Shown here piece by piece: positions 25,926 to 64,000 of a stretch of 64,000 bases of DNA. The notes under the pieces are model-generated. The model was not told the DNA's origin and did no database searches. It was given only the letters and a program-made list of their open reading frames with translations. The stretch's first letter is position 1; the number at the start of each line of letters is the position of its first letter. Source of the DNA: Eledone cirrhosa (taxonomy: Eukaryota); contig OZ024744.1 of assembly GCA_964016885.1 (NCBI GenBank), forward strand, positions 95,294,001 through 95,358,000, in the 5' to 3' direction. The position numbers and the translations under genes are program-made.

Positions 25926-25984
25926 GTGAGTATTGTTATTGCTTCTAAATGTACTTTCTTGAATATTACAATAATAATTTAAAG

Positions 25985-26780
25985 CAGCCAGTCCACACTG
26001 TAAAGTGGTCATGTAGGTGTCACGACAAAAAGTACCCAGTCCACACTGTAAAGCGGTCATGTAGGTGTCACGACAAAAAACACCCAGACCACACTGTAAA
26101 GTGGTCATGTAGGTGTCACGACAAAAAACACCCAGTCCACACTGTAAAGTGGTCATGTAGGTGTCACAACAAAAAGCACCCAGTCCACACTGTAAAGTGG
26201 TCATGTAGGTGTCACGACAAAAAGCACCAGTCCACACTGTAAAGTGGTCATGTAGGTGTCACGACAAAAAGCACCCAGTCCACACTGTAAAGTGGTCATG
26301 TAGGTTCCACAACAAAAAGCACCCAGTCCACTCTGTAAAGTGGTCATGTAGGTGTCACGACAAAAAGCACCCAGTCCACACTGTAAAGTGGTCATGTAGG
26401 TTCCACAACAAAAAGCACCCAGTCAACACTGTAAAGTGGTCATGTAGGTTCGACAACAAAAAGCACCCAGTCCACTCTGTAAAGTGGCCATGTAGGTGTC
26501 ACAACAAAAAAAACACCCAGTCCACACTGTAAAGTGGTCATGTAGGTGTCACAACAAAAAAACACCCAATCCACACTGTAAAGTGGTCATGTAGGTGTCA
26601 CGACAAAAAAAAACACCCAGTCCACACTGTAAAGTGGTCATGTAGGTGTCACAACAAAAAAACACCCAGTCCACACTGTAAAGTGGTCATGTAGGTGTCA
26701 CGACAAAAAGCACCCAGTCCACACTGTAAAGTGGTCATGTGGGTTCCACAACAAAAAGCACCCAGTTCACACTGTAAATT
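25985..26780 (+). repeat. 48-bp minisatellite (about 16 copies), CACCCAGTCCACACTGTAAAGTGGTCATGTAGGTGTCACGACAAAAAG
   Basis: 48-bp period, seen as a 16-aa repeat in the spurious ORFs. Runs directly into an RTE-type 3' tail. Confidence 0.95.
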
Positions 26781-32030: not shown

Positions 32031-32479
32031 CATATATATATTCATTAAAAAGACACCAAATACATTAATGCATTATATGCTGATTAACGAACGTTTCCTC
32101 CCCTCCTGGGATTTTTCAAAATCAGAAATTTAATACATAAACCTTGTTACAATCTCACCATAATACATTCTATCCAACAGCCAGGTATTTGTTTACATTA
32201 AAAAAAAAATACAAAGTTACACCATATTGCTATTTTGAGCTGTAACATCTTCACCTATGGTTATAACGTCTTATATTGTTTTTGTAAAACGATATATATC
32301 TCATCATCATCATCATCATTTTATGTCCGCTTTTCCCTGCTTGCAAGGGTTGGACGGGTCCTATTCAGCACAGCATCTCTCCACTTGTCACAGTCCTTCG
32401 TCATCTCCTCGGTGAGTTTCCGCCCATGTTTTACGTGGTCTACCTCTACTGCGTCTTCCTTCTATACATATATATATAT

Positions 32480-33481
32480 AGCAGCAAGTGCCCACAAAAT
32501 ACTAGCTCTTTCAATTGCGCAGAGGGTTCTATAGAAATAGTGGACAGCTTCCGTTACCTGGGCGATAAAATCAGCAGTGGCTCTGAAAGTACTGTAGCTA
32601 GAGTCAGAACTGGTTGGAAAAAGTTCAGAGAGCTTATACCACTATTAGCTGCTAAAGGGTTCTCACTAAAAATGAAAGGCAGGTTGTACGATGCCTGCAT
32701 ACGAACAGCAATGCTGCATGGCAGTGAGACCTGGGCATTGTGTGCAGAGGATATACGCAGACTAGAGAGGAACGAAGCTTGCATGCTCCGCTGGATGTGT
32801 AACAGTAATATACGTGAACGGCAAAGCATAAACGAACTAAGGAAAAAATTAGAGATAAGAGGGATCAGATGTTGTTTACTCGAGAGAAGGCTACGTTGGT
32901 ATGGACACGTGATGCGCATGAAAGTCGATAGCTGTATAACAAAGTGCAGGGCAATAAAGATAGACGGTAGCCACGGAATAGGCAGACCTAGAAAAACCTG
33001 GGACGAGCTGATAAACTCCGACCTAACACACTTACACCTCTCCAAGACAATGTCACTGGACCGAGACCTTTGGCGGTACTCAGTAACAGAGAAGACCCGC
33101 CTTACCTAAATACATAGTAAAACCTACTCCAGCCAGTAGGCATCTCTAACAAAATACACCCCCGCCCCACCACCCCCACCCCATCCACGCCACCCCGTTC
33201 TATGTAAAGTTGTGTTGGTGCCACACCATCCAGGCCGAAACAAATGAGATCGTGTAGGTGTCACGACAAAAAAACACACAGTCCACGCTGTAATGTGGCC
33301 GTGTAGGCAACACGGTAAAAACCTCCCAGACCCACACTGTAAATGTGGTTGGTGTTAGGAAGGGCATCCAACTGTAGAAAACCTGCCAGACAGTCCTATG
33401 CGAGCAAGCCAATCACTCTTGCCTCAAGTGGGACTACCCCCGTCCAAACCCATGCAAGCGTGGAACACGGACGTTAAACGT

Positions 33482-33512: not shown

Positions 33513-33559
33513 ATAATAGGAGCCTTTAATTGTTAATTGTGTCAAAGAAACAACCTGTC

Positions 33560-34005
33560 TGGTGTTGGTGATCAACACAATAAATGCTCCCAGTACACGT
33601 TGTAAAGTGTTTGGTGATAAAAAGGGCGTCCACACATAGAAAGCTTGACAAAGGGTTGGAAGGACTTTTCAGTTGTGTGAAGGAGATGACAGGCTCCCTA
33701 GTGTTGGTGATCTATATAATAAAAGCACACAGTACATGCTGTAAAGTGGTTGGTGTTAGGAAAGGCATCTAGTTGTAGAAAACTTGCTAAACAAGGACTT
33801 AGGAGGATCCTTCAGTTTGTGTCAAAAACATGACAACTTCTGAGTACTTGATAGATGTATGAGCTTACATAAAAGGTATACAGACCCCTCAGCCTGTCTG
33901 GGAGGTCAGTAGCCCCGCTTCAGTACTGACTTAATCTTTGTAGATTTGTCTAACCCTTGCTAGCAGGGAGGGAGGACATTAAATGATGATGATCATCATC
34001 ATTGA
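33560..34005 (+). mobile_element. Old RTE-type 3'UTR fragments with a partial internal duplication
   Basis: Two CAGTACA..TGTAAAGTG.TTGGTG segments and a GATGAT tail. Confidence 0.55.
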
Positions 34006-34289: not shown

Positions 34290-34550
34290 TCACCTTGACC
34301 GACCAGTCTGTTGGGCACCAATCGGCGCCGCTGGTCACAGCATGTTGTGCTGTTTTAGCCATAAGATAACGCCATCCCACTGGCTGGGCGGGCAGGCCGG
34401 TACTCATTTCTACAGCTGAGTAAACTGGAGCAACGTGAAATAAAGTGTCTTGCTCAAGGAAACAACACATCACCCGGTCCGAGAATTGAACTCACAACCT
34501 TTCGATTGCAAGCCCAATGCTTTAACCACTAAGCCATGTGCCTTCACACA
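34290..34550 (-). mobile_element. tRNA-derived SINE with a CORE/V-like central domain
   Basis: Minus strand reads TGGCTTAGTGGTTAAAG (A box)...GAGTTCAATTC (B box)...CCTTGAGCAAGACACTTTATTTCACGTTGCTCCAG. Confidence 0.8.
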
Positions 34551-34569
34551 TATATATATATACATATAC

Positions 34570-35070
34570 ATACATACTTACATTTAAGTATCAGCTGTAC
34601 TAAGAGTGAGAAATGAAATTTCGTTTCATTCTTTTCCATTTATCGTTTTCAGTACGCCTGGCCGACTAACTCACTTGATATGCAAATTAGGCTGCTCAGC
34701 CGTTAATAGGCATGAGGAAAGTATATACTTTCAGATGTTCAATCATCTGGCAGAAAGGTATACGATGCTGATGATAGCTAATAAGCTTGAAACTAGTACA
34801 TCGTTCCTGTGTCAGTGTTGAACAAAAGGGCGACGATGGTTGCCGAGCACTGTACGGCGTAATTCGGGCTGTTTGTTTACAGACAAACCAAACATTATAA
34901 TAAATGTTTGGTAAACCCATACGTACATATATATATGTGTGCATGTATGTATATATATACATACTACTGTACGTCTGTATACATATATGTATGTACGTAT
35001 ACATACATACTTACATTTAAGTAACAGCCGTACTAAGAGTGAGAAATGAAATTTCGGTTCATTCTTTTCC

Positions 35071-35075
<5 letters not shown>
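34570..35075 (+). mobile_element. Retrozyme/Penelope-pLTR-like unit: about 433-bp monomer with about 70-bp terminal redundancy, containing a hammerhead ribozyme
   Basis: CTTACATTTAAGTA...TCATTCTTTTCCATTTAT occurs at 34577 and 35010 (offset 433). The hammerhead lies between the copies and the unit is flanked by (TA)n. Confidence 0.65.
34762..34804 (+). ncRNA. Minimal type I hammerhead ribozyme
   Basis: Stem I ACGATG (34762-67) pairs with CATCGT (34799-804); core CTGATGA; stem II AGCT-AATA-AGCT; GAAA; palindromic CTAG in place of stem III; TA cleavage site. Confidence 0.85.
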
Positions 35076-35111
<36 letters not shown>

Positions 35112-35117
35112 CACATA

Positions 35118-35380
35118 TCATCAACATCATCACCATCATCATCATCGTTTAACGTCCATCTTCCATGCTAGCATGGGTTAGACATGTTTGTCCAATTTAG
35201 AGGCAAGTTGGGTCAGGTGACCATGTCTCGCTCATATAGGACTGTTTCTGGCTGGTTTTCTATGGTTGGATGCCCTTCGTAGCACCAACCACATTTACAG
35301 AGTGTGCTGGGTGCTTTTTGTTGTGACACCTATACGACCACTTTACAAAGAGGGCTGGACGTTTTGTGGTACCAACATAA
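35118..35380 (-). mobile_element. RTE-type 3'UTR/tail, antisense
   Basis: (CAT)n-CGTTTAACGTCC...CATGCTAGCATGGG...GGATGCCCTTC plus the reverse complement of the 48-bp unit. Confidence 0.75.
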
Positions 35381-35464
35381 CATATACACACACACATATA
35401 TATATATATGTATACACACATATATAGCATAATAGGGATATATATATTTGTGTGTTTATACATA

Positions 35465-36177
35465 TATCATCATCACCTCCATCTTACATCCATTTTCCAC
35501 ATCAGCGTGGGTTAGATGGACTGTCCTATTGTAGGCAATGCTAGGTCAGGTGACCATATCTTGCTCATACAGGACTGACTCTGCTTTGGTTTCTACAGCT
35601 GGATGCCCTGTCTAATGCCAACCTGATTTACAGTGAGTACTGGGCACTTTTTGCCATGTCACCATCACAACCACTTTACAGTGTGGGCTGAGGGCTTCAC
35701 TGGATGCATTTATTTTGGCCTGTCCTCATGGGGGTGTATGCTAGGGTGGGGTGGGGCACACTGTATATATGCTTCAGCTCGTGGAAATTTAAGTATTCTG
35801 TATTACTGCATATCACCAGAGATCTCGGTCATGTGTCATCACAGTTGAGAGGTGCAATTGGGCAAGGTCGGCTTTTATCACCTCATCCCAAATCTTTCTT
35901 GGGTCTCCCCACTCCAAGGCTTCCATCGAATTTGAGCACTCTGCACTTTTTTATGCAGCTGTCATCCTTCATATGCATCACATGTCCATACCAACGCTAT
36001 CTCCTCTCCTGCGCACAACATCTGATTCCTCTTATGCCTAATTTCTCTCTTAGTTCATTTATGCTTTGCTGTTCTCGTATATTACTATTACACATCCATC
36101 GGGGGATGCAAGCTTCATTTATTTCCAATATATGCAAGTCTTCTGCACACAGCACCTAGGTCTCACTACCATGCAAC
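35465..36177 (-). mobile_element. RTE-clade LINE 3' fragment, antisense
   Basis: 35820-36177 is a reverse-complement homologue of about 32715-33070 (TGTCCATACCAACG, GTCTCACTACCATGCA), followed by the tail. Confidence 0.85.
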
Positions 36178-42049: not shown

Positions 42050-45000
42050 CTGATGGCATGATAAAATGCAGCCATTCCACTCTGTAAAGAAGTAGTGTAA
42101 AGGCTGGTGCCATGATAAAATACACCCAGCCAACACTGTAAAGTGGTAGTGCTGGTGCCATGATAAAATACACCCAGCCAACACTGTAAAGTGGTAGTGC
42201 TGGTGCCATGATAAAATACACCCAGCCAACACTGTAAAGTGGTAGTGCTGGTGCCATGATAAAATACACCCAGCCCACTCAGTATAGAGGTAGTACTGGT
42301 GTCATGATAAAATACACCCAGCCCACTCAGTAAAGAGGTAGTACTGGTGTCATGATAAAATACACCCAGCCCACTCAGTAAAGAGGTTGTACTGGTGTCA
42401 TGATAAAATACACCCAGTCCACTCAGTAAAGAGGTAGTACAGGTGTCATGATAAAATACACCCAGCCCACTCAGTAAAGAGGTAGTACTGGTGTCATGAT
42501 AAAATACACCCAGCCTACTCAGTAAAGAGGTAGTGCTGGTGTCATGATAAAATACACCCAGCCCACTCAGTAAAGAGGTAGTATTGGTGTCATGATAAAA
42601 TACAACCAGCCCACTCAGTATGGGAGGTAGTACTGGTGTCATGATAAAATACACCCAGTCCACTCAGTAAAGAGGTAGTACTGGTGTCATGATAAAATAC
42701 ACCCAGCCCACTCAGTAAAGAGGTAGTATTGGTGTCATGATAAAATACACCCAGCCCACTCAATAAAGAGGTAGTATTGGTGTCATAATAAAATACACCC
42801 AGCCCACTCAGTAAAGAGGTAGTACTGGTGACATGATAAAAGACACCTAGCCCACTCAGTAAAGAGGTAGTGCTGGTGTCATGATAAAATACACCCAGCC
42901 CACTCAGTAAAGAGGTAGTGCTGGTGTCATGATAAAATACACCCAGCCCACTCAGTAAAGAGGTAGTGCTGGTGTCATGATAAAATGCACCTAGTCCACT
43001 CAGTAAAGAGGTTGTACTGGTGTTATGATAAAATGCACCTAGTCCACTCAGTAAAGAGGTTGTACTGGTGTTATGATAAAATACACCCAGCCCACTCAGT
43101 AAAAAGGTAGTACTGGTGTCATGATAAAATACACCCAGCCCACTCAGTAAAGAGGTAGTACTGGTGTCATGATAAAATACACCCAGCCCACTCAGTAAAG
43201 AGGTAATGCTGTTGTCATGATAAAATACACCCATCCCACTCAGTAAAGAAAGAGGTAGTGCTGGTGTCATGATAAAATACACCCAGCCCACTCAGTAAAG
43301 AGGTAATGCTGGTGTCATGATAAAATACACCCATCCCACTCAGTAAAGAGATAGTACTGGTGTCATGATAAAATACACCCAGCCCACTCAGTAAAGAGGT
43401 AGTGCTGGTGTCATGATAAAATGCACCTAGTCCACTCAGTAAAGAGGTAGTGCTGGTGTCATGATAAAATACAGCCAGTCAACACTGTAAAGTGGTAGTG
43501 CTGGTGTCATGATAAAATACAACCAGCCCACTCAGTAAAGAGGTAGTACTGGTGTCATGATAAAATACACCCAACACACTCAGTAAAGAGGTAGTACTGG
43601 TGTCATGATAAAATACACCCAGCCCACTGAGTATGGGAGGTAGTACTGGTGTGATGATAAAATACAATCTGCCTACTCAGTAAAGAGGTAGTACTGGTGT
43701 CATGATAAAATACACCCAGTCCACTCAGTAAAGAGGTAGTACAGGTGTCATGATAAAATACACCTAGCCCACTCAGTAATGAGGTAGTACTGGTGTCATG
43801 ATAAAATACACCAAGCCCACTCAGTAAAGAGGTAGTGCTGGTGTCATGATAAAATACACCCAGCCCACTCAGTAAAGAGGTAGTGCTGGTGTCATGATAA
43901 AATACACCCATCCCACTCAGTAAAGAGGTAAGGTAGTGCTGGGGTCATGATAAAATACAGCCAGTCCACTCAGTAAAGAGGTAGTGCTGGTGTCATGATA
44001 AAATACACCCAGCCCACTCAGTAAAGAGGTAGTACTGGTGTCATGATAAAATACACCCAGCCTACTCAGTAAAGAGGTAGTACTGGTGTCATGATAAAAT
44101 ACACCCAGCCCACTCAGTAAAGAGGTAGTGCTGGTGTCATGATAAAATACACCCAGCCCACTCAGTAAAGAGGTAGTACTGGTGTCATGATAAAATACAC
44201 CCAGCACACTCAGTAAACAGGTTGTACTGGTGTCATGATAAAATACACCCAGCCCACTCAATAAAGCGGTAGTATTGGTGTCATAATAAAATACACCCAG
44301 CCCACTCAGTAAAGAGGTAGTACTGGTGACATGATAAAAGACACCTAGCCCACTCAGTAAAGAGGTAAGGTAGTGCTGGGGTCATGATAAAATACACCCA
44401 GCCCACTCAGTAAAGAGGTAGTGCTGGTGTCATGATAAAATACACCCAGCCCACTCAGTAAAGAGGTAGTGCTGGTGTCATGATAAAATGCCCCTAGTCC
44501 ACTCAGTAAAGAGGTTGTACTGGTGTCATGATAAAATACACCCAGCCCACTCAGTAAAGAGGTAGTGCTGGTGTCATGATAAAATACACCCAGCCCACTC
44601 AGTAAAGAGGTAATGCTGTTGTCATGATAAAATACACCTAGCCCACTCAGTAAAGAGGTAGTGCTGGTGTCATGATAAAATACACCCAGCCCACTCAGTA
44701 AAGAGGTAGTGCTGGTGTCATGATAAAATACACCCAGCCCACTCAGTAAAGAGGTAGTACTGGTGTCATGATAAAATACACCCAGCCCACTCAGTAAAAA
44801 GGTAGTACTGGTGTCATGATAAAATACACCCAGCCCACTCAGTAAAAAGGTAGTGCTGGTGTCATGATAAAATACACCCAGCCCACTCAGTAAAGAGGTA
44901 GTGCTGGTGTCATGATAAAATACACCCTTCCCACTCAGTAAAGAGGTAGTGCTGGTGTCATGATAAAATACACCCAGCCCACTCAGTAAAGAGGTAGTAC

Positions 45001-48000
45001 TGGTGCCATGATAAAATACACCTAGCCCACTCAGTAAAGAGGTAGTGCTGGTGTCATGATAAAATACACCCAGCCCACTCAGTAAAGAGGTAGTGCTGGT
45101 GTCATGATAAAATACAGCCAGCCAACACTGTAAAGTGGTAGTGCTGGTGTCATGATAAAATACACCCAGCACACTCAGTAAAGAGGTAGTACTGGTGTCA
45201 TGATAAAATACACCCAGCCTACTCAGTAAAGAGGTAGTGCTGGTGTCATGATAAAATACACCCAGCCCACTCAGTAAAGAGGTAGTACTGGTTCCATGAT
45301 TAAATGTACCCAGTCCACTCAGTAAAGAGGTAGTACTGGTGCCATGATAAAATACAGCCAGCCCACTCAGTAAAGGGGTAGTACTGGTGTCATGATAAAA
45401 TACACCCAGTCCACTCAGTAAAGAGGTAGTACTGGTGTCATGATAAAATACACCCAGCCCACTCAGTAAAGAGGTAGTACTGGTGTCATGATAAAATACA
45501 CCCAGCCCACTCAGTAAAGAGGTAGTGCTGGTGTCATGATAAAATACACCCAGCCCACTCAGTAAAGAGGTAGTGCTGGTGTCATGATAAAATACACCCA
45601 GCCCACTCAGTAAAGTGGTAGTGCTGGTGTCATGATAAAATACACCCATCCCACTCAGTAAAGAGGTAGTGCTGGTGTCATGATAAAATACACCCAGCCC
45701 ACTCAGTAAAGAGGTAGTACTGGTGCCATGATAAAATACACCCAGCCCACTCAGTAAAGAGGTAGTACTGGTGCCATGATAAAATACACCTAGCCCACTC
45801 AGTAAAGAGGTAGTGCTGGTGTCATGATAAAATACACCCAGCCCACTCAGTAAAGAGGTAGTACTGGTGTCATGATAAAATAGACCCAGCCCACTCAGTA
45901 AAGAGGTAGTACTGGTGTCATGATAAAATACACCCAGCCCACTCAGTAAAGAGGTAGTGCTGGTGTCATGATAAAATACACCCAGCCCACTCAGTAAAGA
46001 GGTAGTGCTGGTGTCATGATAAAATGCACCTAGTCCACTCAGTAAAGAGGTTGTACTGGTGTTATGATAAAATGCACCTAGTCCACTCAGTAAAGAGGTT
46101 GTACTGGTGTTATGATAAAATACACCCAGCCCACTCAGTAAAAAGGTAGTACTGGTGTCATGATAAAATACACCCAGCCCACTCAGTAAAGAGGTAGTAC
46201 TGGTGTCATGATAAAATACACCCAGCCCACTCAGTAAAGAGGTAATGCTGTTGTCATGATAAAATACACCCATCCCACTCAGTAAAGAAAGAGGTAGTGC
46301 TGGTGTCATGATAAAATACACCCAGCCCACTCAGTAAAGAGGTAATGCTGGTGTCATGATAAAATACACCCATCCCACTCAGTAAAGAGATAGTACTGGT
46401 GTCATGATAAAATACACCCAGCCCACTCAGTAAAGAGGTAGTGCTGGTGTCATGATAAAATGCACCTAGTCCACTCAGTAAAGAGGTAGTGCTGGTGTCA
46501 TGATAAAATACAGCCAGTCAACACTGTAAAGTGGTAGTGCTGGTGTCATGATAAAATACAACCAGCCCACTCAGTAAAGAGGTAGTACTGGTGTCATGAT
46601 AAAATACACCCAACACACTCAGTAAAGAGGTAGTACTGGTGTCATGATAAAATACACCCAGCCCACTGAGTATGGGAGGTAGTACTGGTGTGATGATAAA
46701 ATACAATCTGCCTACTCAGTAAAGAGGTAGTACTGGTGTCATGATAAAATACACCCAGTCCACTCAGTAAAGAGGTAGTACAGGTGTCATGATAAAATAC
46801 ACCTAGCCCACTCAGTAATGAGGTAGTACTGGTGTCATGATAAAATACACCAAGCCCACTCAGTAAAGAGGTAGTGCTGGTGTCATGATAAAATACACCC
46901 AGCCCACTCAGTAAAGAGGTAGTGCTGGTGTCATGATAAAATACACCCATCCCACTCAGTAAAGAGGTAAGGTAGTGCTGGGGTCATGATAAAATACAGC
47001 CAGTCCACTCAGTAAAGAGGTAGTGCTGGTGTCATGATAAAATACACCCAGCCCACTCAGTAAAGAGGTAGTACTGGTGTCATGATAAAATACACCCAGC
47101 CTACTCAGTAAAGAGGTAGTACTGGTGTCATGATAAAATACACCCAGCACACTCAGTAAACAGGTTGTACTGGTGTCATGATAAAATACACCCAGCCCAC
47201 TCAATAAAGCGGTAGTATTGGTGTCATAATAAAATACACCCAGCCCACTCAGTAAAGAGGTAGTACTGGTGACATGATAAAAGACACCTAGCCCACTCAG
47301 TAAAGAGGTAAGGTAGTGCTGGGGTCATGATAAAATACACCCAGCCCACTCAGTAAAGAGGTAGTGCTGGTGTCATGATAAAATACACCCAGCCCACTCA
47401 GTAAAGAGGTAGTGCTGGTGTCATGATAAAATGCCCCTAGTCCACTCAGTAAAGAGGTTGTACTGGTGTCATGATAAAATACACCCAGCCCACTCAGTAA
47501 AGAGGTAGTGCTGGTGTCATGATAAAATACACCCAGCCCACTCAGTAAAGAGGTAATGCTGTTGTCATGATAAAATACACCTAGCCCACTCAGTAAAGAG
47601 GTAGTGCTGGTGTCATGATAAAATACACCCAGCCCACTCAGTAAAGAGGTAGTGCTGGTGTCATGATAAAATACACCCAGCCCACTCAGTAAAGAGGTAG
47701 TACTGGTGTCATGATAAAATACACCCAGCCCACTCAGTAAAAAGGTAGTACTGGTGTCATGATAAAATACACCCAGCCCACTCAGTAAAAAGGTAGTGCT
47801 GGTGTCATGATAAAATACACCCAGCCCACTCAGTAAAGAGGTAGTGCTGGTGTCATGATAAAATACACCCTTCCCACTCAGTAAAGAGGTAGTGCTGGTG
47901 TCATGATAAAATACACCCAGCCCACTCAGTAAAGAGGTAGTACTGGTGCCATGATAAAATACACCTAGCCCACTCAGTAAAGAGGTAGTGCTGGTGTCAT

Positions 48001-49600
48001 GATAAAATACACCCAGCCCACTCAGTAAAGAGGTAGTGCTGGTGTCATGATAAAATACAGCCAGCCAACACTGTAAAGTGGTAGTGCTGGTGTCATGATA
48101 AAATACACCCAGCACACTCAGTAAAGAGGTAGTACTGGTGTCATGATAAAATACACCCAGCCTACTCAGTAAAGAGGTAGTGCTGGTGTCATGATAAAAT
48201 ACACCCAGCCCACTCAGTAAAGAGGTAGTACTGGTTCCATGATTAAATGTACCCAGTCCACTCAGTAAAGAGGTAGTACTGGTGCCATGATAAAATACAG
48301 CCAGCCCACTCAGTAAAGGGGTAGTACTGGTGTCATGATAAAATACACCCAGTCCACTCAGTAAAGAGGTAGTACTGGTGTCATGATAAAATACACCCAG
48401 CCCACTCAGTAAAGAGGTAGTACTGGTGTCATGATAAAATACACCCAGCCCACTCAGTAAAGAGGTAGTGCTGGTGTCATGATAAAATACACCCAGCCCA
48501 CTCAGTAAAGAGGTAGTGCTGGTGTCATGATAAAATACACCCAGCCCACTCAGTAAAGTGGTAGTGCTGGTGTCATGATAAAATACACCCATCCCACTCA
48601 GTAAAGAGGTAGTGCTGGTGTCATGATAAAATACACCCAGCCCACTCAGTAAAGAGGTAGTACTGGTGCCATGATAAAATACACCCAGCCCACTCAGTAA
48701 AGAGGTAGTACTGGTGCCATGATAAAATACACCTAGCCCACTCAGTAAAGAGGTAGTGCTGGTGTCATGATAAAATACACCCAGCCCACTCAGTAAAGAG
48801 GTAGTACTGGTGTCATGATAAAATAGACCCAGCCCACTCAGTAAAGAGGTAGTACTGGTGTCATGATAAAATAGACCCAGCCCACTCAGTAAAGAGGTAG
48901 TGCTGGTGTCATGATAAAATACACTCAGTTATAACACAGTAAAGAGGTTGTACTGGTGTCATGATAAAATACACCCATCCCACTCAGTAAAGAGGTAGTG
49001 CTGGTGTCATGATAAATTACACCCAGCCCACTCAGTAAAGAGGTAGTACTGGTGTCATGATAAAATAGACCCAACCCACTCAGTAAAGAGGTAGTACTGG
49101 TGTCATGATAAAATACACCCAGTAATCACACAGTAAAGAGGTAGTACTGGTGTCATGATAAAATACACCCAGCCCACTCAGTAAAGTGGTAGTGCTGGTG
49201 TCATGATAAAATACACCCATCCCACTCAGTAAAGAGGTAGTGCTGGTGTCATGATAAAATACACCCAGCCCACTCAGTAAAGAGGTAGTACTGGTGCCAT
49301 GATAAAATACACCCAGCCCACTCAGTAAAGAGGTAGTGCTGGTGTCATGATAAAATACACCCAGCCCACTCAGTAAAGAGGTAGTGCTGGTGTCATGATA
49401 AAATACAACCAGCCCACTCAGTAAAGAGGTAGTGCTGGTGTCATGATAAAATACACCCAGTAATCACTCAGTAAAGTGGGAGTGCCAGGGCTGTAATAAA
49501 ATGTACCCTGCCCACAATGTAAAGTAGTTGTGCTGGTGTCAAGAAAAAATTCATGCAACCTACTTTATAATGTTGTTGTGTTGGTGCCACAATAAAATGC
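42050..49600 (+). repeat. 48-bp satellite (about 155 copies), GGTGTCATGATAAAATACACCCAGCCCACTCAGTAAAGAGGTAGT(A/G)CT
   Basis: 48-bp period (16-aa repeat in the spurious minus-strand ORFs). Ends in an RTE-type tail at about 49600-49765. Confidence 0.97.
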
Positions 49601-51146: not shown

Positions 51147-53708
51147 ATTATACATACAAAATAAACATGTAATATACATACTAAATAAACATGTAATATA
51201 CATACAAAATATACATGTAATATACATACTAAATAAACATGTAATATACATACAAAATAAACATGTAATATACATACTAAATATACATGTAATATACATA
51301 CAAAATATACATGTAATATACATACAAAATAAACATATAATATACATACTAAATAAACATGTAATATACATACAAAATAAACATATAATATACATACAAA
51401 ATATACATGTAATATACATACAAAATATACATGTAATATACATACTAAATAAACATGTAATATACATACTAAATAAACATGTAATATACATACAAAATAA
51501 ACATGTAATATACATACAAAATAAACATGTAATATACATACAAAATAAACATAATATACATACAAAATAAACATGTAATATACATACAAAATAAACATGT
51601 AATATACATACAAAATATACATGTAATATACATACAAAATATACATGTAATATACATACTAAATAAACATGTAATATACATAATAAATAAACATGTAATA
51701 TACATACAAAATATACATGTAATATACATACTAAATAAACATGTAATATACATACTAAATAAACATGTAATATACATACAAAATATACATGTAATATACA
51801 TACAAAATATACATGTAATATACATACAAAATATACATGTAATATACATACTAAATAAACATGTAATATACATACTAAATAAACATGTAATATACATACA
51901 AAATAAACATGTAATATACATACAAAATAAACATGTAATATACATACAAAATAAACATATAATATACATACAAAATAAACATGTAATATACATACAAAAT
52001 AAACATGTAATATACATACAAAATATACATGTAATATACATACAAAATAAACATATAATATACATACAAAATAAACATGTAATATACATACAAAATATAC
52101 ATGTAATATACATACAAAATATACATGTAATATACATACAAAATATACATGTAATATACATACTAAATAAACATGTAATATACATACTAAATAAACATGT
52201 AATATACATACAAAATATACATGTAATATACATACAAAATATACATGTAATATACATACAAAATATACATGTAATATACATACTAAATAAACATGTAATA
52301 TACATACTAAATAAACATGTAATATACATACTAAATAAACATGTAATATACATACAAAATAAACATGTAATATACATACAAAATAAACATGTAATATACA
52401 TACAAAATAAACATATAATATACATACAAAATAAACATGTAATATACATACAAAATAAACATGTAATATACATACAAAATAAACATATAATATACATACA
52501 AAATAAACATGTAATATACATACAAAATAAACATGTAATATACATACAAAATAAACATGTAATATACATACAAAATATACATGTAATATACATACTAAAT
52601 AAACATGTAATATACATACTAAATAAACATGTAATATACATACAAAATATACATGTAATATACATACAAAATATACATGTAATATACATACAAAATATAC
52701 ATGTAATATACATACTAAATAAACATGTAATATACATACTAAATAAACATGTAATATACATACAAAATAAACATGTAATATACATACAAAATAAACATGT
52801 AATATACATACAAAATATACATGTAATATACATACTAAATAAACATGTAATATACATACTAAATAAACATGTAATATACATACAAAATATACATGTAATA
52901 TACATACAAAATATACATGTAATATACATACAAAATATACATGTAATATACATACTAAATAAACATGTAATATACATACTAAATAAACATGTAATATACA
53001 TACAAAATAAACATGTAATATACATACAAAATAAACATGTAATATACATACAAAATAAACATATAATATACATACAAAATAAACATGTAATATACATACA
53101 AAATAAACATGTAATATACATACAAAATAAACATATAATATACATACAAAATAAACATGTAATATACATACAAAATAAACATAATATACATACAAAATAA
53201 ACATGTAATATACATACAAAATAAACATGTAATATACATACAAAATAAACATATAATATACATACAAAATATACATGTAATATACATACAAAATATACAT
53301 GTAATATACATACAAAATATACATGTAATATACATACTAAATAAACATGTAATATACATACAAAATAAACATGTAATATACATACAAAATAAACATATAA
53401 TATACATACAAAATAAACATGTAATATACATACAAAATAAACATGTAATATACATACAAAATAAACATGTAATATACATACAAAATAAACATATAATATA
53501 CATACAAAATAAACATGTAATATACATACAAAATAAACATGTAATATACATACAAAATAAACATGTAATATACATACAAAATAAACATGTAATATACATA
53601 CAAAATAAACATATAATATACATACAAAATAAACATATAATATACATACTAAATATACATGTAATATACATACAAAATAAACATGTAATATACATACAAA
53701 ATATACAT
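51147..53708. repeat. 24-bp AT-rich satellite (about 106 copies), AATATACATACAAAATA(A/T)ACATGT
   Basis: 24-bp period (8-aa repeats in the spurious ORFs), with occasional 22-bp units. Confidence 0.97.
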
Positions 53709-59649: not shown

Positions 59650-59730
59650 GTGAGTTACATTTGTTTACTAATGTTTGTTATTATGACATGTAGTAACATT
59701 TTATGACAAATTTGGGGGTTGTTTTAACCC

Positions 59731-62700
59731 TTAACATCCTGTACCACATGAAACCACATTAACAAGACATTCTTGAAAAGTACAAAACAGTACTATGACT
59801 GTATCACATTAACTGTTAACATCCTGTACCACATGAAACCACATTAACAAGACATTGTTGAAGAGTACAGAACAGTACTATGACTGTATCACATTAACTC
59901 TTAACATCCTGTACCACATGAAACCACATTAACAAGACATTGTTGAAAAGTACAAAACAGTACTATGACTGTATCACATTAACTCTTAACATCCTGTACC
60001 ACGTGAAACCACATTAACAAGACATTGTTGAAAAGTACAAAACAGTACTATGACTGTATCACATTAACACTTAACATCCTGTACCACATGAAACCACATT
60101 AACAAGACATTGTTGAAGAGTACAAAACAGTACTATGACTGTATCACATTAACACTTAACATCCTGTACCACATGAAACCACATTAACAAGACATTGTTG
60201 AAGAGTACAGAACAGTACTATGACTGTATCACATTAACTCTTAACATCCTGTACCACATGAAACCACATTAACAAGACGTTGTGGAAAAGTACAAAACAG
60301 TACTGTGACTGTATCACATTAACTCTTAACATCGTGAACCACATGAAACCACATTAACAAGACATTGTTGAAAAGTACAAAACAGTACTATGACTGTATC
60401 ACATTAACTCTTAAGATCCTGTACCACATGAAACCACATTAACAAGACGTTGTTGAAAAGTACAAAACAGTACTATGACTGTATCACATTAACACTTAAC
60501 ATCCTGCACCACATGAAACCACATTAACAAGACGTTGTTGAAAAGTACAAAACAGTACTATGACTGTATCACATTAACTCTTAACATCGTGAACCACATG
60601 AAACCACATTAACAAGACATAGTTAAAAAGTACAAAACAGTACTATGACTGTATCACATTAACACTTAACATCCTGCACCACATGAAACCACATTAACAA
60701 GACATTGTTGAAAAGTACAGAACAGTACAATGACTGTATCACATTAACTCTTAACATCCTGTACTACATGAAACCACATTAACAAGTCATTGTTGAAAAG
60801 TACAAAACAGTACTATGACTGTATCACATTAACACTTAACATCCTGCACCACATGAAACCACATTAACAAGACGTTGTTGAAAAGTACAAAACAGTACAA
60901 TGACTGTATCACATTAACTCTTAACATCCTGTACTACATGAAACCACATTAACAAGACATTGTTGAAAAGTACAAAACAGTACTATGACTGTATCACATT
61001 AACTGTTAACATCCTGTACCACATGAAACCACATTAACAAGACATTGTTGAAATGTACAAAACAGTACTATGACTGTATCACATTAACTCTTAACATCGT
61101 GAACCACATGAAACTACATTAACAAGACATTGTTGAAAAGTACAAAACAGTACTGTGACTGTATCACATTAACTCTTAACATCCTGTACCACATGAAACC
61201 ACATTAACAAGACATAGTTGAAAAGTACAAAACAGTACTATGACTGTATCACATTGACTCTTAACATCCTGTACCACATGAAACCACGTTAACAAAACAG
61301 TTGAAAAGTACAAAACAGTACTATGACTGTATCACATTAACTCTTAACATCCTGTACCACATGAAACCACATTAACAAGACATTGTTGAAAAGTACAAAA
61401 CAGTATTATGACTGTATCACATTAACTCTTAACATCCTCTACCACATGTAACCACATTAACAAGACACTGTTGAAAAGTATAAAACAGTACAATGACTGT
61501 ATCACATTGACTCTTAACATCCTGTACTACATGAAATCACATGAACAAGACATTGTTGAAATTTACAAAATAGTACAATGACTGTGTCACATTAACACTT
61601 AACGTCCTGTACCACGTTAAACCACATTAACAAGACATTGTTGAAAAGTATAAAACAGTACTATGACTGTATCACATTGACTCTTAACATCCTGTACCAC
61701 ATGAAACCACATTAACAAGACATTGTTGAAAAGTACAAAACAGTACTATGACTGTATCACATTAACTGTTAACATCCTGTACCACGTTAAACCACATTAA
61801 CAAGACATTGTTGAAAAGTATAAAAAAGTACAATGACTGTATCACATTGACTCTTAACATCCTCTACCACATGTAACCACATTAACAAGACACTGTTGAA
61901 AGGTACAAAACAGTACTGTATCACATTAACTCTTAACATCCTGTACCACATAAAACCACATTAACAAGACATTGTTGAAAAGTACTAAACGGTACTATGA
62001 CTGTATCACATTAACTCTTAACATCCTGTACCGCATGAACCCACATTAACAAGACATTCTTGAAAAGTACAAAACAGTACTATGACTGTATTACATTAAC
62101 TCTTAACGTCCTGTACCACGTGAAACCACATTGATAAGACATTATTGAAAAGTATAAAACAGTACTATGAGTGTATCACGTTAACTATTAACATCCTGTA
62201 CCACGTGAAACCACATTAACAAGACATTGTTAAAAAGTACAAAACAGTCCTGTATCACATTAACTCTTAATATCCTGTACCACATGAAACCACATTAACA
62301 AGACATTGTTGAAAAGTACTAAACAGTACTGTGACTGTATCACATTAACTCTTAACATTCTGTACAGCATTAAACTACATTCACAAGACATTCTTGAAAA
62401 GTACAAAACAGTACTATGACTGTATCACATTAACTCTTAACATCCTGTACCACATTAAACCACATTAACAAGACATTGTTGAAAAGAACAAAACAGTACT
62501 ATGACTGTATCACGTTATCTCTAATATCCTGTACCACATGAAACCACATTAACCAGAGATTCTTGAAAAGTACAAAACATTACTATGATCGTATCACATT
62601 AACACTTAACGTCCTGTACCACGTGAAACCACTTTAAGAAGACATTCTTGAAAAATTCAAAACAGTACTATGACTGTATCACATTAACTCTTAAGATCCT

Positions 62701-64000
62701 GTACCACATGAAACCACATTGATAAGACATTATTGAAAAGTATAAAACGGTACCATGACTGTATCACATTAACTCTTAACATCCTGTACCACGTGAAACC
62801 ACATTAACAAGACATTCTTGAAAAGTACGAAACGATACTATGACTGTATCACATTAGCTGTTCTCATCCTGTACCACATGAAACCACATTAGCAAGACAT
62901 TCTTGAAAAGTACAAAACAGTATTATGACTGTATCACATTAACTCTTAACATCCTGTACCACATGAAACCACATTAACAAGACATTCTTGAAAAGTACAA
63001 GATAGTACTATGACTGTATCGCATTAACTCTTAACATCCTGTACCACATGGACCACATTAACAAGACATTCTTGAAAAGTACACTACAGTACTATGACTG
63101 TATAATATTAATTCTTAACATCCTGTACCACGTGAAACCACATTAACAATACGTTCTTAAAAAGTTCAAAACAGTACTATGACTGTAGCACATTTACTCT
63201 TAACATCCTGTACCACATGAAACCACGTTAACAAGACATTCTTGAAAAGTACAAAACAGTACTATGACTGTATCACATTTGCTCTTAACATCCTGTACCA
63301 CATGAAACCACATTAACAAGACATACTTGAAAAGTACAAAACAGTACTATGACTGTATCACATTAACTGTTAACATCCTGTACCACATGAAACTACATTA
63401 ACAAGTCATGGTTGAAAAGTAAAAAACAGTACTATGACTGTATCACATTAACTGTTAACATCCTGTACCACATGAAACCACATGAACAAGTCATTGTTGA
63501 AAAGTACAAAACAGTACTATGACTGTATTACATTAACTGTTAACATCCTGTACCACATGAAACCACATTAACAAGACATTCTTGAAAAGTACAATACAGT
63601 ACTATGACTGTATCACATTAACTATTAACATCCTGTACCACGTGAAACCACATTAACAAGACATTGTTGAAATGTACAAAACAGTACTATGACTGTATCA
63701 CATAAACTCTTAACATCCTGTACCACGTGAAACCACATTAACAAATCATGGTTGAAAAGTACAAAACAGTTCTATGACTGTATCATATTAACTCTTAACA
63801 TCCTGTACTACATGAAACCACATTAACAAGACATTCTTAAAAAGTTCAAAACAGTACTATGACTGTATCACATTAACTCTTAACATCCTGTACCACATGA
63901 AACCACATTAACAAGACATTGTGGAAAAGTACAAAACAGTACTATGACTTTATCATATTAACTCTTAACATCCTGTACCACATGAATCCACATTAACAAG
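59731..64000. repeat. 85-bp satellite (about 50 copies visible, runs off the right edge)
   Basis: Unit TTAACATCCTGTACCACATGAAACCACATTAACAAGACATTGTTGAAAAGTACAAAACAGTACTATGACTGTATCACATTAACTC; starts at 59731, 59816 and 59901. Confidence 0.97.

Follow-up and report, generated by a model that had tools for sequence, protein, structure and literature searches.

Metazoan non-LTR retrozymes, in the accessible parts of Cervera and de la Pena 2020 (PMC7229834) and of the preprint by Li, Clavereau and Pollet (bioRxiv 10.64898/2026.07.22.740005), are non-coding tandem repeats of 150-450 bp with a low GC content, below 50%, and one type I hammerhead each, which occur in thousands of copies, carry no LTR, PBS or PPT, and coexist with Penelope-like elements. 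Circular RNAs have been shown for other animal retrozymes (PMC7229834), and their mobilisation from circular RNA by Penelope-like elements has been proposed, backed by co-occurrence and pLTR phylogeny, while the preprint takes dimers or multimers with intact hammerheads as its criterion for active elements. Penelope-like elements and their non-autonomous derivatives such as Chlamys MRC1 (10.1101/2021.04.23.441226, accessible parts) form partial tandems with an inverted 5'-truncated arm and a tail on one end, target microsatellites, among them (TA)n, and include head-to-tail non-autonomous copies. Tandem units with a promoter ahead of the hammerhead, an arrangement in which an upstream copy would transcribe the next one, are described for schistosome repeats (Pol III) and newt satellite 2 (Pol II) in the accessible text of PMC6765202. 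The retrozyme class, the proposed Penelope link and such promoter-plus-hammerhead tandem units are therefore already known.

The family analysed here shares the sequence features listed for these systems, in the third case with a candidate promoter ahead of the hammerhead, and, judged by the sequence criteria of the class, is a new member of the non-LTR retrozymes. It differs from the described retrozymes in that a Penelope footprint could be counted from the insertion ends and a U6-like box lies within the unit; circular RNA was shown for the published families and is predicted for the present unit. The accessible text of PMC7229834 names no cephalopod, octopus or squid, the words 'promoter' and 'tail' are absent from that of the preprint, and our literature search, supplements aside, found no description of the family, which may already be catalogued in Repbase or Dfam. 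With good confidence we interpret the locus as one insertion of a high-copy non-coding retrozyme whose RNA is predicted to cut itself, is likely circular, and was likely reverse-transcribed into (TA)n by a borrowed Penelope-like enzyme.

Structure of the window copy

The window is the whole 64-kb stretch of DNA that was analysed, and unit positions were obtained by subtracting 34576 from window positions. The features of the locus are as follows.

34548..34576, plus strand: remnant of the AT-rich end of the preceding monomer, 5'-truncated and merging into host (TA)n; 5' boundary approximate
34577..35009, plus strand: full monomer of 433 bp, based on the period of 433 and on full-length genome copies 92-96% identical; phase arbitrary
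34632..34649, plus strand: two T4 runs, at 34632 and 34646, the only ones in the monomer, flanking the tail end at 34643
34679..34691, plus strand: box TATGCAAATTAGG, containing the octamer ATGCAAAT; matches the box located at -77 to -79 in the U6 and RNase MRP genes of the host
34718..34731, plus strand: TATA-like palindrome AAAGTATATACTTT; TATA begins at 34722, 43 nt after the box
34747..34815, plus strand: type I hammerhead, extended stem I with internal loop; predicted cut after A34798
34888..34910, plus strand: hairpin CCAAACATT..AATGTTTGG; family majority CCGAAC..GTTCGG
34921..35009, plus strand: AT-rich self-complementary segment, present in every monomer, length variable
35010..35076, plus strand: terminal tail, unit 1-67, one of two fixed family 3' ends, the other being at about unit 7
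35074..35108, no strand: (TA)n target or 3' junction; most arm ends of the family enter (TA)n

The period of 433 is the spacing of a 96-nt direct repeat, 94% identical (34548-34643 and 34981-35076), of which the non-simple portion, 34577-34643 against 35010-35076, comprises 67 nt at 95.5% identity. This confirmed the preliminary description, which had reported a direct repeat of about 70 bp at 34577 and 35010 and a unit of about 433 bp present as about 1.2 monomers. Its further statement that the unit is embedded in (TA)n applies to 35074-35108 but not to the AT-rich segment at 34921-35009, which is a conserved part of the monomer and not a host microsatellite. Similarly, the terminally redundant unit does carry a ribozyme, but the hammerhead lies inside the unit and the repeated 67 bp are themselves without one. 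Among the several hairpins it had listed, CAGATG..CATCTG is not conserved: the majority sequence of the family forms it imperfectly, and one subfamily has lost part of it. The octamer noted near 34680 was located at 34680-34687. No convincing open reading frame had been seen, and the only two frames of at least 80 aa from stop to stop over the unit (104 and 86 aa) run on the minus strand through the AT-rich repeat and look non-coding. The region folds with a z of -8.4, partly because of the AT-rich hairpin, and the GC content of one 429-nt family monomer is 0.37. The T4 runs around the tail end could possibly act as Pol III terminators.

In comparison to the overall family majority, the window copy differs at 16 of 344 sites, roughly half of them at CpG as judged by reading; it is an ordinary copy, about 5% decayed, and with its single ribozyme is unable to make a circle alone. 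The same 11-mer stands on either side of it, at 34542-34552 and 35108-35118. Loose (TA)n ends behind 34643 were also observed in public contigs from three runs, all of one study that possibly used the source sample and thus giving no independent support. A tRNA-derived SINE with (TA)n flanks adjoins the left side of the element (34291-34546, minus strand; tRNA match at 34479-34536, 29.8 bits). Farther to the left, a 273-aa frame at 32288-33109 (plus strand) has no Pfam match, and we take it to resemble the C-terminal part of an RTE-type LINE protein. The window also contains large satellites with units of 22, 48, 24 and 85 bp at 1-23166, 42103-49550, 51149-53708 and 59724-64000, respectively; the 48-bp units, found also at 25981-26778, resemble by eye a dispersed repeat around 33550-33800 and 35130-35700.

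Family size and subfamilies

Exact matching in the 3.0-Gb genome gave 5,144 hits for a 28-mer of the tail, 23,644 for the hammerhead core, sister subfamilies included, and 299 for a motif of the window copy's own variant, in comparison to 0 for the reversed-pattern control in each case. A similarity search returned 6,589 candidates, of which 40 were scored, and the best full-length copies among these were 92-96% identical. The unit is thus not single-copy, and tandem copies, dimers and multimers with intact hammerheads of the kind that Li et al. associate with activity exist in the genome, while the window copy itself has one hammerhead. A total of 194 near-full monomers from 145 loci were grouped into five clusters, each with 14-93 members, and 14 singletons; mean divergence was 1.2-4.0%, and the subfamily periods were 420-556. 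Besides single arms, both tandem and back-to-back arrangements of copies are found, dispersed over many contigs. The proposal of a non-autonomous ribozyme retroelement family is supported by this high copy number, by the tandem copies and by the lack of a tie to a Penelope ORF (see below).

The predicted hammerhead ribozyme

The hammerhead core was read from the sequence as CTGATGA (34768-34774), GAAA (34789-34792) and GTA (34796-34798), with a stem II of 4 bp (AGCT/AATA/AGCT, with U.U at its base) and a palindromic stem III of 2 bp. In Rfam no ribozyme match was found in the sequence at gathering level; the best ribozyme match, HH9, was sub-threshold, scoring 20.5 bits (E 0.035) where the gathering level requires 52. 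The miRNA matches returned by the same search were discarded as AT-repeat noise, and HDV-like and twister folds considered by eye for 34828-34875 were not found.

Each unit carries one type I hammerhead, whose core and stems are conserved across the 194 monomers. The core is intact in 169 of 194, a figure biased upward by the fact that some loci were fetched by the core pattern. At the stem I pair formed by unit positions 189 and 225, the combinations A-U, G-U and U-G were found 97, 48 and 41 times among 193 monomers, and pairing was kept in 187 of 193. Based on this sequence, the unit RNA is predicted to cut itself at the hammerhead, after A34798. The motif agrees in layout with the canonical metazoan hammerhead, a form that performs best as a dimer, and a stem III of 2 bp may cut poorly as a monomer (accessible parts of PMC4209133).

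Insertion ends

Arm ends were recorded in two sets of loci, set A comprising 70 tail-anchored loci in genome order, of which 7 were dropped for an overlapping neighbour to leave 109 arms, and set B comprising the 126 loci left after 3 duplicates of set A were dropped. Among the 108 non-edge arms of set A, 57 were tail ends at unit 56-67, 35 were short ends near unit 7 and 16 ended elsewhere; nearly all arm ends entered (TA)n and a few (TC)n. The 31 back-to-back pairs of set A consisted of 21 with one tail and one short end, 2 with like ends and 8 with an unclassified end, and the corresponding numbers for the 56 two-armed insertions of set B were 30, 3 and 23. For both sets together, 51 of 56 classifiable two-armed insertions, out of 87 examined, have one arm with a tail of about 60 bp and the other arm without it. 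The family therefore has two fixed 3' ends about 60 nt apart, one on each side of the insertion, while the 5' ends are scattered. In 7 of the 21 set-A pairs (read from the table) and 4 of the 30 set-B pairs, it is impossible for either arm to have arisen from the other by fold-back copying, which points to two separate priming events. Target-site duplication was detected at 1 of 192 loci in comparison to 0-3 in controls, a weak test because the flanks are simple repeats.

This pattern is the published footprint of Penelope-like elements, and on sequence grounds the family is likely copied by elements of that type.

Relation to Penelope-like elements

The genome is rich in elements with RT and GIY-YIG domains; 10,597 GIY-YIG candidates were obtained, of which 150 were scored and 48 loci examined. 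A linkage of the unit to Penelope RT/GIY-YIG ORFs had been suggested as a check, and it was found to be unattached: a Penelope-like protein match lies within about 1.5 kb at only 4 of 200 unit loci, and in the two same-strand neighbours that were read (L287 and L134) (TA)n separates the unit from the Penelope 3' end. Upstream of a monomer we found another monomer, an inverted arm or host DNA, and no ORF. Segments of the unit, when compared with the 3' regions of 46 Penelope-like loci sampled from the 10,597 candidates, gave no alignment better than shuffles, and a stretch of one Penelope 3' UTR that looked tail-like on inspection was rejected because its score lay in the range of the shuffles. 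The lack of both a 3' match and an attached ORF indicates that the unit is not the pLTR of any sampled family.

In comparison to published Penelope-like elements (10.1101/2021.04.23.441226, accessible parts), the unit is without an ORF, its tail is about 60 bp instead of 30-40 bp, its hammerhead is canonical rather than minimal, and it has no 3' similarity to the sampled autonomous families. One Penelope-like RT-GIY-YIG family of the same genome (L126, L127, L129, L136 and L080) carries a minimal type I hammerhead about 380 nt past the stop codon; of its 5 hammerhead matches, 1 had a short and 4 had a tailed 3' end in (TA)n. The 3' regions of the L051 and L124 types (e.g., at L287 and L134) have a GAAA-CCGG-TA motif near the 3' end, which from its letters may be a variant hammerhead with altered core.

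A promoter-like box ahead of the hammerhead

The box of the unit is its sole match in the window and was found in 0 of 2000 shuffles, and the octamer is intact in 172 of 194 monomers. In the host, the box TATGC(A/T)AAT(T/G)AG at -77 to -79 with a TATA at -30 is present in three distinct U6 promoters and in the single RNase MRP gene, and the best U6atac locus has a one-letter variant of it; an octamer-like box at about -78 thus accompanies the host U6, MRP and U6atac genes (L031, L032, L033, L221, L213), while U2 is without it. The vertebrate distal element is located much farther from the gene. The box was absent from the U2 promoters examined, from 7 other U6atac matches and from some U6 copies; three other U6/U6atac classes without a box near the gene are probably retrocopies or disrupted copies. 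A tandem U6 gene cluster with a period of about 1.8 kb (L033-L050, G000:C19:31.78-31.84 Mb) includes several copies in which a SINE-like insertion separates the gene from the TATA region. The newt satellite 2 promoter is also of the snRNA type. The unit differs from the schistosome and newt repeats in that its box matches the upstream box of host U6 and MRP genes, which the U2 promoters examined do not have. Our literature search found no retrozyme with a snRNA-type Pol III promoter and no mollusc U6 octamer with TATA.

The order of box and TATA is the same as in the host genes, while the spacing is 43 nt in comparison to 47-49 nt, that is, 4-6 nt or half a helical turn shorter; the value of 43 nt recurs in 201 of 202 regex matches, a count in which overlapping loci are included. 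Transcription is predicted from these positions to start at about 34752, inside distal stem I. A cluster of 5' ends at the predicted start was seen in set A (5 of 15) but did not replicate in set B (5 of 49, 5.1 expected), and it was not retained. Judged from the motifs, the chances that box and TATA function as a promoter are about even; the short spacing, the loss of 8 nt after the TATA in one subfamily and the 5'-end cluster that did not replicate speak against it.

The RNA template and alternative explanations

Copying of cut linear monomers from unit 67 would be expected to make 5' ends accumulate at unit 223. Only 2 of 33 and 1 of 76 5' ends fell within unit 220-226, in comparison to 1.0 and 2.4 expected; the lack of such an accumulation speaks against linear monomers as the template and agrees with either a circle or an uncut multimer. 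By analogy with related families for which the circle is documented (PMC7229834, accessible parts), the unit RNA probably forms a circle of about 430 nt. Within some young arrays the monomers are identical (three monomers of 466 nt in one, two of 430 nt in another), and in other arrays they are not. A five-monomer array (L243, G000:C1:19.31 Mb) alternates between two variants, A and B, at 15 sites, and its monomer 2 has 5' variants in common with the last monomer and 3' variants in common with monomer 0. Reading this array as copied from a dimer circle was rejected in favour of a local two-monomer duplication or an assembly artefact, and because DNA-level duplication explains it best, tandem number alone is no proof of rolling reverse transcription. 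A-to-I editing scars were not established: private changes were A>G 46 against T>C 48, and shared changes, whose counts are not independent, were A>G 48 against T>C 16 but also G>A 65 against C>T 9.

In the retrozyme interpretation, tandem copies would be transcribed from the U6-like box and TATA or by read-through, and cutting as a dimer is suggested by the short palindromic stem III. The cut monomers would be ligated into circles of about 430 nt. The GIY-YIG endonuclease of Penelope would then nick (TA)n, and the RT would prime at about unit 67 on one side and about unit 7 on the other. From there, synthesis would proceed backwards over the ribozyme site to an extent that varies between insertions, and the window copy would consist of one arm only, started at 67 and about 1.2 turns long. 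A more specific version, which we put forward tentatively, is a self-promoted RNA-circle retroelement. Its circularising unit would have captured the host U6/MRP box within it, and a Penelope enzyme, working from the two ends of a single DNA break, would start on one and the same RNA at two fixed sites some 60 nt from each other and continue around it. Less likely is the same Penelope-type mobilisation with an uncut linear RNA as template, transcribed as a multimer from a tandem source locus, in place of a circle. Such a template accounts equally well for the scattered 5' ends and also fits arms that exceed one monomer, uncleaved oligomers have been proposed as templates of Penelope enzymes (PMC6765202, accessible parts), and the poor monomer cutting that may go with a 2-bp stem III points the same way, while the identical monomers of some young arrays fit one template copied repeatedly and the circles shown for other animal retrozymes favour the circular form.

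The remaining explanations depart further from the data. It is improbable that the unit derives, as a 5'-truncated fragment, from the pLTR of an unsampled autonomous Penelope-like element; the tail and inversion footprint is shared with such elements and only 48 of the 10,597 GIY-YIG candidate loci were examined, but no ORF stands upstream of the monomers, few loci have a Penelope-like neighbour, the neighbours at L287 and L134 are set apart by (TA)n, and multimers of the bare unit exist. We give an equally small chance to a Pol III SINE-like retroposon, started at the U6-like box, ended at a T4 run and copied by a LINE, for which the match of box and TATA to host U6/MRP promoters, the position of the only T4 runs about the tail end, and the precedent of schistosome promoter-plus-hammerhead SINEs (PMC6765202, accessible parts) can be cited. 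Copies routinely contain the promoter together with whole extra monomers, no cluster of 5' ends was established at the predicted start, and the target-site duplication test, weak as it is, gave no signal, all of which count against such a retroposon. Two fixed ends, one per arm, are to our knowledge also not what L1 twin priming produces. Finally, a DNA-level repeat, either a satellite or a rolling-circle DNA element with an incidental hammerhead-like motif, is very improbable: the L243 array and the sub-threshold Rfam score agree with it, but fixed 3' ends with variable 5' truncation, dispersal on many contigs, a conserved core and stem I changes that preserve pairing across five subfamilies do not.

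Significance

With more than 20,000 hammerhead copies, the family is a sizeable repeat component of the genome. To the proposal that Penelope mobilises animal retrozymes it adds an insertion footprint that can be counted and a candidate promoter, and the two defined candidate priming sites are testable in a Penelope RT assay. If the tentative reading of a self-promoted RNA circle is true, each newly inserted tandem would be able to initiate a transcript of its own, and the step from circle to genome, proposed for animal retrozymes but not shown, would gain direct genomic evidence from this family.
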